A stretch of DNA of 12,103 bases from a virus (Duplodnaviria > Heunggongvirae > Uroviricota > Caudoviricetes): IMG/VR virus record IMGVR_UViG_2617270939_000001. One strand, given 5' to 3'. Position numbers and translations under genes: made by a program. Numbering within the stretch: the stretch's first letter is position 1; every line of letters begins with the position of its first letter. Below the pieces are notes generated by a model. It ran no database searches. It had not been told where the DNA came from and saw only the letters and a list, made by a program, of their open reading frames with translations. Positions 1,341-12,103 of the stretch are shown here, piece after piece.

Positions 1341-1916
1341 CTACGGCAGTGCTGGCCATTCAATATCCTGTGCAGTTGACGTATCAACACGGTTCAGCAA
1401 TACCCGATACTTTTTCCATGCTTCCAGCAACGAGATTTCTTCCTCCGTTGCAATTTCCAGATCTGCAGCATCCTGAAGCGGCGCAATATGCTCACTGGCT
1501 ACCTGCATCAGGCTGTTTTTTGTTTCTTCCGCCTCCCGGATCCGGAACAGTTTTTCTGCTTCCGTATCCTTCACCCAGGCTGTGCCGTTCCACTTCTGAT
1601 ATTCCCCTCCCGGCGATAACCAGGTAACATTTTCCGGTAACGGACCGAGTTCAGAAATAAATAACGCGTCGCCGGAAGCCACGTCATAAACCGTTTTACC
1701 CCGATGATCTTCAACGAGATGCCACGATGCCTCATCACTGTTGAAAACAGCCACGAAGCCTGCCGGAATATCTGGCGGTGCAATATCGGTACTGTTTGCT
1801 GGCAGACCTGTATGAGGCGGAATATATGCGTCACCTTCACCAATAAATTCATTAGTTCCGGCCAGCAGATTATAAATTTTTATGGTCCGTGGTTGTTCAC
1901 TCATTCTGAATGCCAT
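1341..1916 (-). CDS. tfa: Tail fibre assembly protein (Tfa), 191 aa
   Basis: Its start codon (1914-1916) shares one base with the stf stop (1916-1918), TAATG on the coding strand. Protein is TfaQ/TfaR-like. Convergent with pin, as in Rac and Qin. Confidence 0.85.
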
Positions 1917-3904
1917 TATGCAAGCCTCACAATATAGTTAAATGCGATGTTTTTGACGGTGTTTTCCGCGTTACCAGCAGCGTTAACGGTGATGGTATGT
2001 CCATGTGAACCAATCGCAACGGAGTGCGTATGAGCACCAATACCGACAGTATGTGCGTGTGCACCTGCGCTTGCAGCAGTACCCGATACAGAGTGCGTAT
2101 GAGCGCCTGCAGAAGAAGTGTTAACACTGTATTTAGAATAATCAGGTGATCCACTTCCCGGAGCACCACTGGAACCACCTGAAACAAATGTCATCGAATG
2201 GGTATGTGCACCGGCTGAAGCAGCCGTACCGCTAACACTATGGGTATGCGCACCAGTGTTATTCGTGGATTTAGTGCCGTAATCAAACGACGATGTGGTT
2301 TTCGTCCCCAAATCCGTACTGGATACGCTGGCGCTGTGGGTGTGTGATTTAATGCCGTCCTGTTCCTGAGACAATACGGCTCGATCACTGGCGGGCTTGC
2401 CCTTAATCGTCCAGCCACGCATATCAGGGATCACGCCTGACGGATAAGCGGCTGCAAGTTTCGGGTAAGCAGATTTGTCAAAAGTCTGCCCCTGCATCAG
2501 GGCATAACCAGACGGAACGGTATCTGATGGCCACGGGATTGGTGCGCCGACTGGATAAAACTCTGCAGGAGGATGAGCCGAGGTGTAAAGCTGCGCCCAC
2601 GGCGACCAGTTTGCGTCGGTCGTATCCCGTCGTGAACGAATAAATGCCGGAGCATGATCGCCGCTGGTTCCACTCCAGCCAATAAGTAACTCACCCTCTC
2701 CTACTGCGGTTACACCAGTGAGATGAAGCACATTACCATAGGTTGTTGGGTAGCCATTGTTGTATGCCTCATACATCTGAATGCCTGGTGTACCCTTTGC
2801 GCTCCCACTTAATGCCGTAACACGGTTTCTGGATACTAACGTATTAATATTTATATCGCTGGAACCATCAAATTTAACTCCATTTATATTTATCGCATTT
2901 TGTAACTTGGTTGCTGTCAATGCGTTACCGTTCAGACTTGCGGACAGTTTGGTTCCAATAACCAGTTCGCCGGTTGCGTTATCAATAGCAAACGGTCTTA
3001 ATGTATTCCAGCCACCATAAACATCACCTTGATTGGTAAGCAGCAGGTAAGTTTTAGCGCCATCATTACGCCATAATGCACCATACTCCCCACCTATCAT
3101 TCGAATCTGATTACCACCACGCGCTACAATTTCGTCTGTGGCAAAAAGTTTTTTGCACGACAAGTTATCGTTAACGATTAACGAATGAGACTCATAAAAA
3201 CCACGCCCACTCTTAAAATCAAGGATAACGTCCGCCGCGATACATTCAGTCGCCGGATTTGTTGCCCCAAACTTATAGGTCGTATCATTAACAACGAGAT
3301 CAGCACCAGGTGCGGATATTGACAGGCCATCTTCGATAAACGCAAAAACAGGGAAAGCAGCGCCATCAACATAGAACACAGAGCGCAAATCATCGCCCTT
3401 ATTACTCATCATTATTGAGTGGATGGCTCGTTCATTGTTTTGATATTGCCAGAACATTCCATAAGCATAACGCCCCCTGTCAGTCCAGCCACCAGGCATA
3501 ACAAATCCGTTAAACTCGCAGTTATTCATCGGATCGCCTGCGGTTCGCGTTGCCGTGGTGATAATGACCCTTGATGCCAGTTCGCTTACTGAGCCAGCAG
3601 AACGCATAACAGCAACAGGGTAATATTTTCCAGATGTTGCACCTGCAGGAGCGTTAACCCGCACATAACGCATACCACGCTTATCAGCAAAGTCTGTTTT
3701 ACTGACCGCGTTAATGTTGTTCAGGAAGCGTCCCTTATCGGGTATATCAGCGCCGTTCTGGTCTTTCTGCAGACGTTTCTCTGCATTGTCATAGGCTGCT
3801 TTTACTGCCTTTGGCGTTGCCGCCAGCGTTTCAGACGTGCTGTTGGTCGCACTGCTGAGCTGTACTATCCCCTTTTTCGTCGTGCTCGCATCCTCAAGCG
3901 CCAC
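1916..3904 (-). CDS. stf: Side tail fibre protein (Stf), C-terminal portion only; the frame is open up to about 4294 but has no ATG, and homology to lambda Stf begins about 4230
   Basis: Translation matches the lambda Stf middle and C-terminus ([35 protein letters not shown] … [14 protein letters not shown] … [31 protein letters not shown]). Upstream in the same frame (3905-4230) is the Ala/Ser/Thr-rich repeat typical of Stf. The 3904 start in the ORF track is a GTG (Val in SAVALED), not a true start. Confidence 0.8.
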
Positions 3905-4665
3905 GGCGGATGCAATATCCTCTGCCCGTTTTGCTGCTGTCTCGGCGCGCGTTGCCGCGGATTCCGCCGTACTTTTGCTCTGAGCTGCCGCCGTCGCACT
4001 GCCAGCTGCCTCTGTCGCCTTCGTGGATGCCGTCGTGGCGCTGCCCTTCGCTGCTGACGCCTGTCTGGTCGCCTCATCTTTTGAAGCAGACGCCGATGAT
4101 GCCGATGACGCCGCCGAACTGGCGGACGATGCCGCTGCCGTTTTTGAGGATTCTGCACGGGTTTCCGACGCTTTCGCGTTCGTTTCGGATGTCTTCGCTG
4201 CGGAAGCTGACCTCGCTGCTGCACTGGCCTGTTTTCCAGTTCCGGAAAACGCCGCTGCACCGACAGGGGGATCCCGTCGAGAATACTGGCAATTTCACCT
4301 GCGATCCGCGACAGCACGAAAGTACAGAATGCGGTTTCCACCACTTCAGCGGAGTCTCTGGCATTTTTCAGCTCCTGTGCGTCGGCCTGCGCACGCGTAA
4401 GTCGATGGCGTTCGTACTCAATAGTCCCTGGCTGGAGATCTGTCTCGCTGGCCCGCCGCAGTTCTTCAACTTCCCGGCGCAGCTTTTCGTTCTCAATTTC
4501 AGCATCCCTTTCGGCATACCATCTTATAACGGCGGCAGAGTCATAAAGCACCTCATTACCCTTGCCACCGCCTCGCAGAACGGGCATTCCCTGTTCCTGC
4601 CAGTTCTGAATGGTACGGATACTCGCACCGAAAATGTCAGCCAGCTGCTTTTTGTTGACTTCCAT
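3865..4665 (-). CDS. nohA: Terminase small subunit Nu1 homologue (NohA-like): 146 N-terminal codons are Nu1, then about 120 codons of out-of-frame stf DNA (deletion fusion, probably non-functional)
   Basis: First 146 aa ([29 protein letters not shown]…[12 protein letters not shown]) are nearly identical to lambda Nu1, including the wHTH. After codon 146 (about 4230) the protein becomes an Arg/Pro/Gln-rich tail, which is the Ala-rich stf repeat DNA read in the wrong frame. Confidence 0.8.
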
Positions 4666-6560: not shown

Positions 6561-6753
6561 TTTTAAATCCAACGACAGACGGCTGGCATTTAAGTATTGT
6601 GAAATATTATCAAATGTAATCATCATTGATTTACAAAAGATACATTTTGCCCCGAAAGGATTCATGTCAGAAACATCAAAAGATGATGTTCTATACTGGG
6701 AACCATGACAACACGGGCATCTAAAGTGAATATGGTTTGTAATATTGTCTACC

Positions 6754-6966
6754 TCAAAGCGCCACTACATGAACAGCGGCAGGACCTTTAGGTCCGTTCT
6801 CAATACCAAATTCAACTTCCTGATTCTCAGTTAATGTTTTGAAATCGTTGCTCTGAATTGCTGAGAAATGGACAAACACATCTTTGCTGCCATCTTTCGG
6901 CGTGATGAAACCAAAACCTTTTTCAGGGTTAAACCATTTCACTAAACCAGTCATTTTGTTAGACAT
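6754..6966 (-). CDS. cspI: Cold-shock protein CspI (CspA family), 70 aa
   Basis: [70 protein letters not shown] carries RNP1 (KGFGFI) and RNP2 (VFVHF). Confidence 0.9.
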
Positions 6967-7098
6967 AATTATTACCTTTTGAAGAAATTAGCCCTTGGGC
7001 AGAATGGTCCGAAAAAAAATATCAGAGAGAAAAACCAACAAGGAAATCTCAAGAGGTACAAATAATAAAATTATAACAATGACTGCTTCAGATAAATT

Positions 7099-7146
7099 TG
7101 TAACAAACCAGAACACCATTAACGCATGATTAACCACCCATAGCAA
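7099..7146 (-). promoter_or_regulatory. Predicted cspI promoter (-35 TTGCTA 7146-7141, 17-bp spacer, -10 GTTAAT 7123-7118) and cold-box-like 5' UTR start (GGTTTGTTACA, 7109-7099)
   Basis: Same layout as the cspB promoter in this window, and similar to the cspA promoter (TTGCAT/CTTAAT) followed by a GGTTTGACGTACAGAC cold box, as I recall it. Predicted 5' UTR about 144 nt. Confidence 0.45.
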
Positions 7147-7328: not shown

Positions 7329-8662
<1,334 letters not shown>

Positions 8663-8666
8663 TGGA

Positions 8667-8882
8667 TTATTCTCCTCTCGCAGCCTTACGCCTGTCTTCT
8701 TTAATCTTGAAATAAAGATTTGTCAGATACGTCAGCAGGCCAAAAACCAGGCTACCCAGCACACCGATTGCAGCCCACTGTGACGGAGTTACTTTATCGA
8801 GTAACTGCAATGCCCAGAAACCAGCATTACCCGCCGATGTGCCATAGGCAACACCTGTTGTTAACTTATCCATTGATTTCAT
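8667..8882 (-). CDS. essQ: Class II holin / pinholin, phage 21 S-like, 71 aa, with dual-start motif MKSM
   Basis: [71 protein letters not shown] has two TM segments and is very similar to S21 as I recall it. GGTGAGGAT SD before ATG 8882. The track ORF's 25-codon upstream extension is not supported. Confidence 0.85.
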
Positions 8883-9101
8883 ATCCTCACCCCGATGTAC
8901 ACGGATGGTGCAATATGTTTGAAAAGATCGGAGTCTACGGGGTAGTTTTGACAGCACACGTTGTTCTCAACGGCGCTAAAAAAACATACACATTAAAAAT
9001 GTGGGTAATTATTTTGAAAGAAAGTCATATATAAAATAATAATACGAGAAATGTTTTCATATTTAGTGTACTGTATACGGCCATTTATACAGGAAAAGCC
9101 T

Positions 9102-9272
9102 ATGTCAGAACGTAAAGACTCAAAATCACGCCGTAATTATCTCGTTAAATGTTCCTGCCCAAACTGCACCCAAGAGTCAGAACACAGTTTTTCAAGAGTA
9201 CAGAAAGGTGCCCTTTTGATCTGCCCTCATTGCAACAAAGTATTCCAGACAAATCTTAAAGCTGTAGCCTGA
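9102..9272 (+). CDS. Small zinc-ribbon protein, 56 aa, of the kind described as YnfQ/YmcF-type small proteins next to csp genes
   Basis: AGGAAAA SD before ATG 9102. Two CxxC pairs (CSCPNC … CPHC). Antisense to the late lysis operon. The upstream part of the track ORF (from 9051) lacks an SD. Confidence 0.6.
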   Translation: MSERKDSKSRRNYLVKCSCPNCTQESEHSFSRVQKGALLICPHCNKVFQTNLKAVA

Positions 9273-9327
9273 TTGATTTTATTAGTAACAAGTATTTTTT
9301 ATATTTTAATAATATATTTAAAGCAGA

Positions 9328-9354
9328 TAATAAAAAACCCGCCTGAGCGGGTTT
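9328..9354 (-). terminator. Rho-independent terminator acting on the minus strand (downstream of cspB)
   Basis: Perfect 8-bp stem AAACCCGC-ctga-GCGGGTTT (9335-9354), followed on the minus-strand transcript by a U run (plus-strand A run 9328-9337). Confidence 0.7.
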
Positions 9355-9635
9355 GAGATTGTGGTGCTTTTTGTGGGAGTCATCCACTTACGCACTTTGT
9401 TTTGCGATGCCAGCAGTTAGCTTCTGCTGTGAAACTATTCATGCAGCAAACCTGCACTTCACCACAATGGTTAGCATACTTTTCCTGATTAAGATTTTGC
9501 CAAATATGCTGGCCATTGTTTCATGTATTGGACCTCCTTACTTTTTATTAAAGAGATCCAATATTCACTACTCTGTCCGTATCTCTACTCAGGCATCAGC
9601 CTTCTTCGTTATCGTATACAGACGAGCGATGAATT

Positions 9636-9851
9636 TTAATCAGTAATGATGACATTTGCTGCTGCAGGACCTTTAGCACCACTCTCTATAGAGAAGGTAA
9701 CCTTTTGACCTTCAAATAAGGTTCGATAATTATCATTCTGAATCGCAGAAAAATGCACAAACACATCTTTACTACCATCAACAGGAGAAATAAAGCCGAA
9801 ACCTTTATCAGCGTTAAACCATTTTACTAAACCAGTCATTTTATTTGACAT
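9636..9851 (-). CDS. cspB: Cold-shock protein CspB (CspA family), 71 aa
   Basis: [67 protein letters not shown]… with RNP1 and RNP2 motifs. AAGGAA SD. Confidence 0.9.
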
Positions 9852-9993
9852 TCTACATTCCTTAACTTGAGCCTTTCGGCATAAATGGTTTGCATAACAG
9901 AAACGACTTCGTACTTAATTGGAGAGACTCAAAGAAGGAATAAGTGAATAACACCTGAAATGAGAACTGCTTTAGTAAACTACTTCGTATATC

Positions 9994-10047
9994 GTCTGTT
10001 CTTCAAACCGACGCAGTCATTAACTCATAGTTGAACATATGAAGCAA
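9994..10047 (-). promoter_or_regulatory. Predicted cspB promoter (-35 TTGCTT 10047-10042, 17-bp spacer, -10 GTTAAT 10024-10019) and cold box at the 5' UTR start (CGGTTTGAAGAACAGAC, about 10010-9994)
   Basis: Minus strand reads TTGCTT-n17-GTTAAT-gactgcgt-CGGTTTGAAGAACAGACGA…AAAGCAG, closely paralleling the cspA promoter and cold box as I recall them. Predicted 5' UTR about 159 nt (10010 to 9852). Confidence 0.55.
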
Positions 10048-10149
10048 TGTTTATTTTAGACATCCAGCCACCTTCAACCCTATCAAAAAAGTAGTTTTCT
10101 CCAGGAACGTGTGTATGGTGCACCAGGTTATCAGTATTAAGGAGTTTTT

Positions 10150-10358
10150 CTGTCCCCTAAAATGACAGGAATTGTCAAAAACTTTGACTACAAAAGCAGC
10201 AAAGGTCTTATATTCCCATCCGATGGCGTATCGATGCCCAGCTTCACGTTTCAGCTCTCAATCTTCGAGATGCAGAAGAAATTACCACAGGATTACGCGT
10301 GGAATTTTGCCGGATAAATGGTTCGCATGGACCTTCAACTGCCAATGTTTATCCCGGG
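10150..10358 (+). pseudogene. cspF: cspF-like cold-shock gene remnant: start codon position is CTG, one frameshift, and no stop at the expected end
   Basis: TAAGGAG SD (10138-10144) sits 5 nt before CTG 10150, where ATG is expected. Frame 1 from ATG 10162 gives [22 protein letters not shown], then homology resumes in another frame (…[12 protein letters not shown]…[21 protein letters not shown]) after a one-base loss near 10227. That frame runs on through the terminator. Confidence 0.6.
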
Positions 10359-10395
10359 ATGAGATTCAATATCTCTATTGCCCCATTTAAAGCAC

Positions 10396-10430
10396 AAAAA
10401 CCCGCTTATAAGCGGGTTTTCTACTTTTTT
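10396..10430. terminator. Strong bidirectional rho-independent terminator; candidate tR' of the Q-dependent late transcript
   Basis: Perfect 9-bp stem AAACCCGCT-tata-AGCGGGTTT (10398-10419) with an A run before and a T run after, so U tracts follow the hairpin on both strands. About 110 nt downstream of the Q stop on the minus strand. Confidence 0.75.
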
Positions 10431-10526
10431 CTAAACGTCGGATACACAAAGCCCATCGTTGAGAAAATCTTATCCATGTTTTTTGAAAAATGCAAACATC
10501 ATGTCGCCATCTTCAGCAAAAATCAT

Positions 10527-11279
10527 TTATCTCGTCACCTTCCTCAATTGCGCTTCCGCGTATGCTTCTTCCTGCCAGCACTTTGTTACCAGTTTACCAA
10601 TGACGTCCGCATACCCCTTATACCACTGATAATCGGTCAGGTCTGGTACCAGCTTCTGGACATGACGTCGTGCCAGCGTGGTCGGTAAACGACTAAACCG
10701 GTTTCCATTACAACGCCCACAAATCTTATATACCGGTACGCCATGAAACCGGGTTCTTTTTTCATCCAGAACAATCCCTTTACCCTTACACCCCCTGCAC
10801 GCTGTGCTGACTTCGCCCTTACCATGGCAATGCTGACATAGTTCCTTCACCCATTCTTCCTTGATTACAGATTCCCCGCGTCTGTAGTGTTTCACCACTT
10901 CGCGCAATACATTATAAAATCCCGTACCTGAACAATGCTCACAGCGAGCCTTACTTGCCGCAGACCTGGAGTAATCAGCAAAGGCAAAATTCACAAGGTA
11001 AGGAATAATCTGTAACCGGATTTCTTCACTCAATTTGTTCAATGTCGGGTTATCCAGTGCCATCGCGTAATTTAGCAGGCCTTCAATCGCAAACTGAGGG
11101 TCCTGAACACCAACTTTTGCCAGAAATAAGGCCAACCCAAGTGGTGCTTTCGACTGCACCATCCCCTGCGCTGCCATTACATCCGTAATTGTTAAACAAC
11201 CGGTGCCTGTCGCTGGAGCGTCATCGCTCAATTTTGGAGATTTTGGGGAGTAATATTTTGGTAAGGCTTCAAGGTTCAT
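10527..11279 (-). CDS. quuQ: Late-gene antiterminator Q, 250 aa from [10 protein letters not shown] (the track ORF's 65-codon N-terminal extension overlaps the upstream gene and is rejected)
   Basis: GGAGAA SD before ATG 11279. Four Cys pairs ([30 protein letters not shown]), a zinc-binding pattern. Sequence and length agree with K-12 QuuQ/QuuD-type Q proteins as I recall them. Confidence 0.8.
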
Positions 11280-11292
11280 GCTCGTTCTCCAC

Positions 11293-11836
11293 TTACGCCA
11301 GTACGCCAGTTGCCAGCGCGCGATCGATAAAACGAAATACCAGCTCCAGTTGGGAGCCATACTTCTCTTCAAATGCCACTGTATCCGTATGCAGCTCGTT
11401 GTGATGCTTTCTGCACAAAGGCAACACAAAGAGATCATGTGCTTTTGTTCCCATTCCGCCCTGCCCGTGACCAATCAGATGATGCGGATCGTCGGCTGGC
11501 ATACCGCAGCAAGCACACGGCTGTGTCTTAACCCAACGTGTGTATTTCTCCTTAACCCAGCGGCGACGTTTAGGCAGCTTCATGAAAGATTCCGGAGACT
11601 CTGGATCAACGGTGATGATTACCACCGTCTTTTCCTGTGGTGGTTTTTGTTGCTGGTGGGCGTAAGGCAACGGTGCAAGATTTTTTGTGCGTTGTTTCAA
11701 TATGCTGGTGGCGGTCTGCTCTCCCGGTACGATGTCGCTTTCGCGGTACACCGAGCAGATTTTTTCCGCTGGTAATCCCAGCGAACGACGCGATACAGCC
11801 TCAGGTAGTGCATCCACCTGAATCGCCACGGATAAT
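11293..11836 (-). pseudogene. ydfU: YdfU-like (DUF968) gene, C-terminal part only; N-terminus replaced by an IS3-family insertion
   Basis: C-terminal region carries an HNH-like Cys/His motif (PCACCGMPADDPHHLIGHGQGGMGTKAHDLFVLPLCRKHHNELH) and ends 13 nt before the Q start. Upstream, the same DNA in another frame encodes the end of the transposase, so the first about 40 codons of the track ORF are IS-derived. Exact junction not determined. Confidence 0.55.
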
Positions 11837-12103
11837 CTAGACACTTCCGAGCCGTTGATAATACTGGTTTTCATATTCTGTCGGTGACATCTGTTCGCTA
11901 GAACCATGCCGACGCTTACTGTTATAAAACATTTCGATGTAATCAAAAATATCACTGCGGGCTTCTTCCCGCGTTCCGTAGATCTTTTTCTTTATCCGTT
12001 CACGTTTCAACAACTGGAAAAAACTTTCTGCAACCGCATTATCATGGCAGTTACCGCGACGGCTCATGCTACCCTCCAGGCCGTGTGATTTCAGGAACGA
12101 CTG
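11800..12103 (-). mobile_element. IS3-family insertion sequence, right end and 3' part; approximate inner boundary 11800-11836
   Basis: Transposase 3' end at 11837. The terminal inverted repeat could not be identified because the other end is outside the window. Confidence 0.6.
11837..12103 (-). CDS. IS3-family transposase (OrfB, DDE/rve domain), C-terminal 88 codons; gene continues beyond the right edge
   Basis: Minus-strand frame is open from the window edge to TAG at 11837-11839 (…QSFLKSHGLEGSMSRRGNCHDNAVAESFF…SPTEYENQYYQRLGSV). SRRGNC.DNA is the hallmark around the catalytic Glu of IS3-family transposases. Confidence 0.8.
   Translation of the reverse strand, partial: QSFLKSHGLEGSMSRRGNCHDNAVAESFFQLLKRERIKKKIYGTREEARSDIFDYIEMFYNSKRRHGSSEQMSPTEYENQYYQRLGSV

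Follow-up and report, generated by a model that had tools for sequence, protein, structure and literature searches.

CspF and CspH form a divergent clade of the Csp proteins which is poor in aromatic residues and whose function is not known (PMC6719143). Overproduction of CspF was found to have little effect on the CspA and CspD target mRNAs that were tested (PMC11648934). In the Qin prophage of E. coli K-12, cspF (b1558, WP_000087756.1) is an intact gene encoding 70 aa from a TTG start, and the surrounding genes occur in the order essD, ynfU and cspB, followed by the divergently oriented cspF, then Q (ydfT/quuQ) and ydfU. K-12 cspH (b0989) belongs to the same CspF/CspH subfamily and is likewise paired divergently with a cspA-type gene, cspG, at another chromosomal locus. 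Both genes (cspF at L002:1653-1865 and cspH at L005:2386-2598 of the retrieved loci) are annotated with a TTG start located 5 nt after TAAGGAA, unlike cspB, cspG and cspI, which begin with ATG. Two near-K-12 variants of cspF were also checked for an ATG start and, in this small sample, TTG was observed in both. A literature search for experimental mapping of the cspF or cspH start codon found none. Initiation at CUG in E. coli has been reported to reach 1-2% of that at AUG, with UUG placed in the 10-100% class (bioRxiv 10.1101/063800).

Inactivated copies of cspF are also known, and calling a cspF pseudogene is routine and has already been done by NCBI PGAP. As an example, ACR3H2_RS11235 in NZ_CM149863.1 and C6N23_RS16865 in NZ_CP027342.1 are annotated as cspF pseudogenes and were found to be identical or 98% identical to the locus described here, with the same two lesions; the label given to the identical DNA is cspF 'frameshifted; incomplete; missing C-terminus'. 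A further relative is phage Tritos (OV696610.1), which corresponds to prophage 3 in LF82, an adherent-invasive strain; plaque formation on MG1655 and electron microscopy images of this phage have been reported (PMC9928086). In the LF82 lysogens, expression lies 59-fold (cspB) and 93-fold (cspI) above the local background (PMC9928086).

The stretch of DNA analysed here, which we refer to as the window, is 12,103 nucleotides long and was found to be an E. coli lambdoid prophage of the Qin type. From left to right it carries pinQ, tfaQ and stfQ, a nohA remnant, ynfO and ydfO, cspI, rzpQ, a ydfR/rrrQ fusion and a holin gene, which are followed by cspB, the cspF remnant (10150-10351, plus strand), Q and a ydfU that is cut by an IS3-family element (Table 1). 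The remnant is therefore orthologous in position within a lambdoid prophage of this type, with an intact cspB diverging from it and Q converging on it. As in K-12, the Shine-Dalgarno (SD) sequence is found at the same position and is followed by a non-ATG codon. The region from 8500 to 11595 is collinear with K-12 except for a deletion of 258 bp, and the cspB-cspF DNA is 95% identical between the two. Unlike K-12 cspF, which is intact, the gene in the window is interrupted, and nine amino-acid replacements were observed across codons 2-68. The divergence from K-12 cspH, which is also intact, is much larger, with a pS of 0.49 relative to the window allele.

Two RNA leaders were recognised in the window by Rfam. 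The cspA thermoregulator match at 9620-10012 indicates that the 5'UTR of cspB extends to about 10012, and a second match of the cspA type at 6727-7112 covers the leader of cspI; no RNA family was matched on the cspF side. A scan of 9850-10560 with the sigma-70 consensus gave no match, and the known cspB promoter region was likewise missed by the same scan.

Table 1. Positions of cspF-related and neighbouring features in the window
Feature	Position	Strand	Remarks
cspI	6754-6966	-	
cspB, intact	9636-9851	-	Divergent from cspF; protein 100% identical to K-12 CspB
Shine-Dalgarno TAAGGAG	10138-10144	+	5 nt (TTTTT) before the start position; TAAGGAA in K-12
CTG at the cspF start-codon position	10150-10152	+	TTG in K-12 cspF and cspH; CTG in the intact ET450, S51 and SKEK alleles
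cspF codons 1-26, original frame	10150-10226	+	NF012007 positions 1-27
cspF codons 27-68, shifted one base	10227-10351	+	NF012007 positions 27-68; final TA belongs to codon 68
TAA closing the frameshifted frame	10315-10317	+	Product of 55 aa from CTG, 51 aa from ATG 10162
258-bp deletion junction	10351/10352		Segment present in K-12 (L002:1856-2113) and in the intact parent
Strong G+C-rich hairpin of 10 pairs between A and T runs	10397-10420		z = -3.7
Q antiterminator gene (ydfT/quuQ)	10527-11279	-	Convergent with the cspF remnant

The most probable reading of positions 10150-10351, to which we assign a probability of about 95% on comparative sequence grounds, is that of a pseudogene, in which the cold-shock-like gene cspF carried by the prophage survives as a non-functional remnant. 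The first lesion was located by an alignment of the window to three sequences, namely K-12 cspF, the intact allele of strain ET450 and a 98% identical variant. Codon 26 has lost its third base, a T that would lie between 10226 and 10227, and GATGGTCGT is thereby changed to GATGGCGT (GATGG-CGT in the window). The two sides of this site were both recognised by the NCBIfam profile for CspF (NF012007), where codons 1-26 gave 42.5 bits (E=4e-11) and the segment beyond the shift gave 73.6 bits (E=8e-21); a match of this kind is, by profile comparison, far beyond chance. The downstream frame, read from 10227, retains residues 27-68 (RIDAQLHV...ANVY) and stays open until 10688, passing through the terminator hairpin. 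The first-pass annotation had described a decayed cspF-like gene whose Csp fold is split between two frames at about 10227, and the alignment with K-12 cspF that it suggested places both lesions exactly. Its suggestion that the CTG could give a 26-aa N-terminal fragment was found to be wrong, as the product would comprise 26 native residues followed by 29 frameshifted ones.

The second lesion is the deletion at 10351/10352, which takes out codons 69-70 of cspF, the TGA stop and a downstream ORF of 30 aa. BLAST against K-12 shows that window positions 9600-10351 are collinear up to L002:1855, while from 10352 onward the match resumes at L002:2114 with 98% identity. The loss of the stop and the reading through the terminator to about 10688 had been noted at first pass and both hold, whereas the cause is this deletion and not a point change. 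Because the deletion is clean and identity to K-12 resumes behind it, replacement of the cspF 3' end by a foreign module was rejected. A deletion mediated by direct repeats was rejected as well, as CATGAG is found near both breakpoints but the junction lies outside the repeat and microhomology is at most 1 nt. The deleted ORF is hydrophobic (L002:1920-2009); in the RefSeq annotations of K-12, ET450 and S51 it lies between cspF and Q and is entered as a hypothetical protein. The hairpin listed in Table 1 is the predicted intrinsic terminator of a transcript of the remnant and, judging from its position downstream of Q, it may also serve as the minus-strand terminator of the late operon.

The consequences for the protein were assessed with two profiles. 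For the cold-shock domain (PF00313, CSD), we required an uninterrupted domain of about 65 aa that scores above the gathering threshold of 27 bits. The frame-1 product scored 15.4 bits and covered positions 1-23 only; the downstream frame reached 30.1 bits (positions 25-64), yet it lacks a start linked to the SD and meets no stop ahead of the terminator. By comparison, the intact parent allele described below gave 62.5 bits over positions 1-65. At the level of the whole protein, where NF012007 calls for at least 111 bits over positions 1-70, the window offers only the two halves given above, which lie in different frames. PGAP recognises a pseudogene by a frame that is shifted, incomplete or both when set against proteins of the family. 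The locus shows both features, in the one-base deletion and in the missing terminus (codons 69-70 and the stop), and PGAP has flagged the identical DNA as a pseudogene, in agreement with the original call of decay by frameshift and lost stop. By descent and synteny the locus is thus a cspF gene, and it is predicted to encode no CspF protein.

An intact parent of this allele was sought among metagenome contigs, which were scanned with a pattern permitting the T to be either present or absent. It was found on one contig only (SKEK01000857.1; L010:2406-2618, minus strand), in the same Qin/Tritos-type prophage background, and about 7 kb around it is 99.2-99.5% identical to the window. In this allele the T is present, the 258-bp segment is kept and CTG occupies the start position of a 70-aa ORF ending in ...VYLS*. 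It is 99.5% identical to the window allele, and the missing T and A10327G (H60R) are the sole differences between the two coding sequences. On NF012007 it scored 140.3 bits where K-12 CspF scored 160.4 bits (cut-off 111). The exact sequence of the parent protein was absent from a collection of 15 billion proteins. Between the window allele and K-12 cspF we observed a pS of 0.175 and a pN/pS of 0.44, which indicates that most of the divergence built up under constraint, before inactivation.

These observations point to an ancestor in which an intact cspF, roughly 10% diverged, would have combined a strong SD with a CTG where the subfamily typically has TTG. Removal of the T from codon 26 would then have cut the cold-shock domain after beta-strand 2, and the 258-bp deletion would have fused codon 68 to DNA lying shortly before the hairpin terminator. 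Initiation at the CUG or at AUG 10162 would give, at most, polypeptides of 55 or 51 aa in which 26 or 22 residues are native, presumably too few for a cold-shock domain to fold.

The start region deserves separate consideration, as the codon at 10150-10152 had been taken at first pass for a sign of decay, with CTG standing where ATG belongs. The SD sequence reported there, TAAGGAG at 5 nt before the CTG, is indeed present. Its TAA (10138-10140) is an in-frame stop and therefore no start is possible further upstream of the CTG. The interpretation of the codon itself does not stand, as K-12 cspF and cspH both have TTG behind the SD at the same position and CTG is found in intact alleles; a non-ATG codon at the CspF/CspH start position is no evidence of decay, since TTG is used there. 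Full-length CspF with a CTG start is annotated by PGAP in strains ET450 and S51, and the S51-type CspF protein was found on at least 1000 contigs. The CTG is, as these alleles indicate, a T-to-C polymorphism of TTG and is not among the disabling lesions.

A mosaic structure was observed in some of the intact alleles (L003:1651-1863 and L006:727-939), where a window-type 5' end, including the CTG, runs through about codon 11 and is followed by a K-12-type body. The recombination point is intragenic, and PGAP calls these alleles intact with a CTG start.

The alternative that retains most weight, although we consider it unlikely, is that the CTG was itself the primary inactivating lesion, so that loss of an ATG silenced cspF and the other lesions came later. 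The order of events is compatible with this, as the CTG must be older than both disabling lesions because the intact parent also has it. CUG is also an initiator about 10-fold or more weaker than UUG, and pN/pS is somewhat higher in the window allele (0.44) than between K-12 cspF and cspH (0.24). Against this reading, the start codon of the subfamily is TTG rather than ATG, the value of 0.44 is still below 1, and intact CTG alleles persist in 36-38 complete genomes and on the contigs carrying the S51-type protein. The stronger SD of the CTG lineage (TAAGGAG as opposed to TAAGGAA) also argues against silencing. The CTG probably lowers the expression of cspF, and the SD, stronger by one base, may be compensatory.

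The TTG/CTG polymorphism in intact cspF alleles provides a natural test case for CUG initiation. It is conceivable, at odds clearly short of even though better than those of silencing by the CTG, that in the intact CTG alleles (S51/ET450 type and the SKEK parent) CUG, placed 5 nt after an SD of 7 nt and shortly behind an in-frame stop, is a real initiation codon and the polymorphism acts as a natural expression dial. cspF would then be a naturally CUG-initiated gene of E. coli, and the remnant could still give a low level of the 55-aa peptide.

The lesioned allele was found to be widespread. The window-type 5' end of cspF occurs in 255 complete E. coli genomes, where 216-217 have the frameshifted body and the remaining 36-38 are mosaics with an in-frame body of the K-12 type. 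The T is missing in every complete E. coli genome with a window-type body (216/216), and the junction of the 258-bp deletion was found in 214 of 5426. Among the complete E. coli genomes, none was found to have the frameshift without the deletion and none to have a window-type body with the T retained. The doubly lesioned allele is also present in the representative genome of Escherichia ruysiae and on seven of eight metagenome contigs, and both LF82 and ATCC 25922 carry the lesioned allele. In Tritos the same remnant is found with 3 mismatches in 300 nt and is gap-free from the SD onward; it is unannotated there, in the spacer between cspB and Q, and its neighbours are the same as in the window.

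Tritos is a complete, plaque-forming phage of 46 kb, whereas the prophage in the window is degraded, with frameshifts in ydfR/rrrQ and an IS in ydfU. The presence of both lesions in Tritos indicates that they were inherited with the phage lineage and did not arise by decay of this cryptic prophage in place. On this distribution, the pseudogene is best described as having arisen in, and as travelling with, a phage lineage that is still active. The idea of a differential decay of paralogous cargo genes put forward in the first-pass annotation is correct in that cspB is intact, while its placing of the decay in this prophage is misleading since the lesions are shared with Tritos. The doubly lesioned allele would have spread through temperate phages similar to Tritos and through recombination between prophages, and it has become fixed in roughly 4% of the complete E. 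coli genomes. A moron can thus be lost within a phage that is still active, as Tritos has a dead cspF alongside two highly expressed genes, cspB and cspI. This suggests that cspF is dispensable to both phage and lysogen.

The persistence of the allele in an active phage could also be taken to mean that the 55/51-aa ORF or its transcript has been co-opted and has gained a function, such as that of a small protein or of an RNA antisense to the late transcript. In line with this, both SD and terminator have been kept, and on 115 contigs the 51-aa ORF is entered as a 'hypothetical protein'. We regard co-option as very improbable, as the persistence is explained by hitch-hiking of the allele between cspB, an expressed moron, and the essential gene Q, and no independent conservation signal was observed.

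Recoding, with a full-length Csp-like protein regained through programmed -1 ribosomal frameshifting near 10226, draws on the two halves being still open and on the good conservation of the C-terminal half, but is given next to no weight because CCGATGGCGTA (shift region CC GAT GGC GTA) contains no slippery heptamer of the form X XXY YYZ, because the absence of a downstream stop before 10688, beyond the terminator, would leave a non-stop mRNA or a tail of about 110 aa, and because a recent origin of the lesions, at 99.5% identity to the intact parent, explains the conservation. A sequencing or assembly error, with a gene intact except for its 3' end, has nothing in its favour beyond the general frequency of single-base indel errors and can safely be dismissed, since the same T is missing in 216 complete genomes, in E. 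ruysiae, on 7 metagenome contigs and in the Tritos record, the shift site (GATGG|CGT) does not lie in a homopolymer run, and the 258-bp deletion alone would inactivate cspF.

Other lesions were noticed around the pseudogene. Relative to K-12, one base is missing from ydfR (codon ~75, about 8438) and another from a run of A residues at codon 4 of rrrQ, which encodes a lysozyme (about 8343). These indels, which are the second and third frameshift lesions of the prophage, merge both genes into one ORF of 279 aa at 7823-8662 (minus strand). At the right-hand end, 11819-12103 holds the C-terminal end of an IS3-family transposase (NF033516; ORF 11837-12067, minus strand). Homology to ydfU in other genomes and in Tritos ends at 11815-11818 with the transposase beyond, which indicates that ydfU is interrupted by the IS. 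The flank of NZ_CM149863.1 differs from this, as its cspF region is 100% identical to the window and an IS1 (L001:1641-2338) replaces cspB and the sequence upstream, with homology starting at window position 9855.

In the left-hand part of the window, collinearity with K-12 Qin breaks at 4231. The nohA-like ORF at 3865-4665 (minus strand) has a long arginine-rich tail which resembles out-of-frame read-through, and the stfQ tail-fibre ORF at 1916-3904 is much longer than the K-12 remnant. Furthermore, a match to the Rfam family IS009 was observed at 1375-1573 (minus strand, 221 bits), inside the tail-fibre assembly gene tfaQ.
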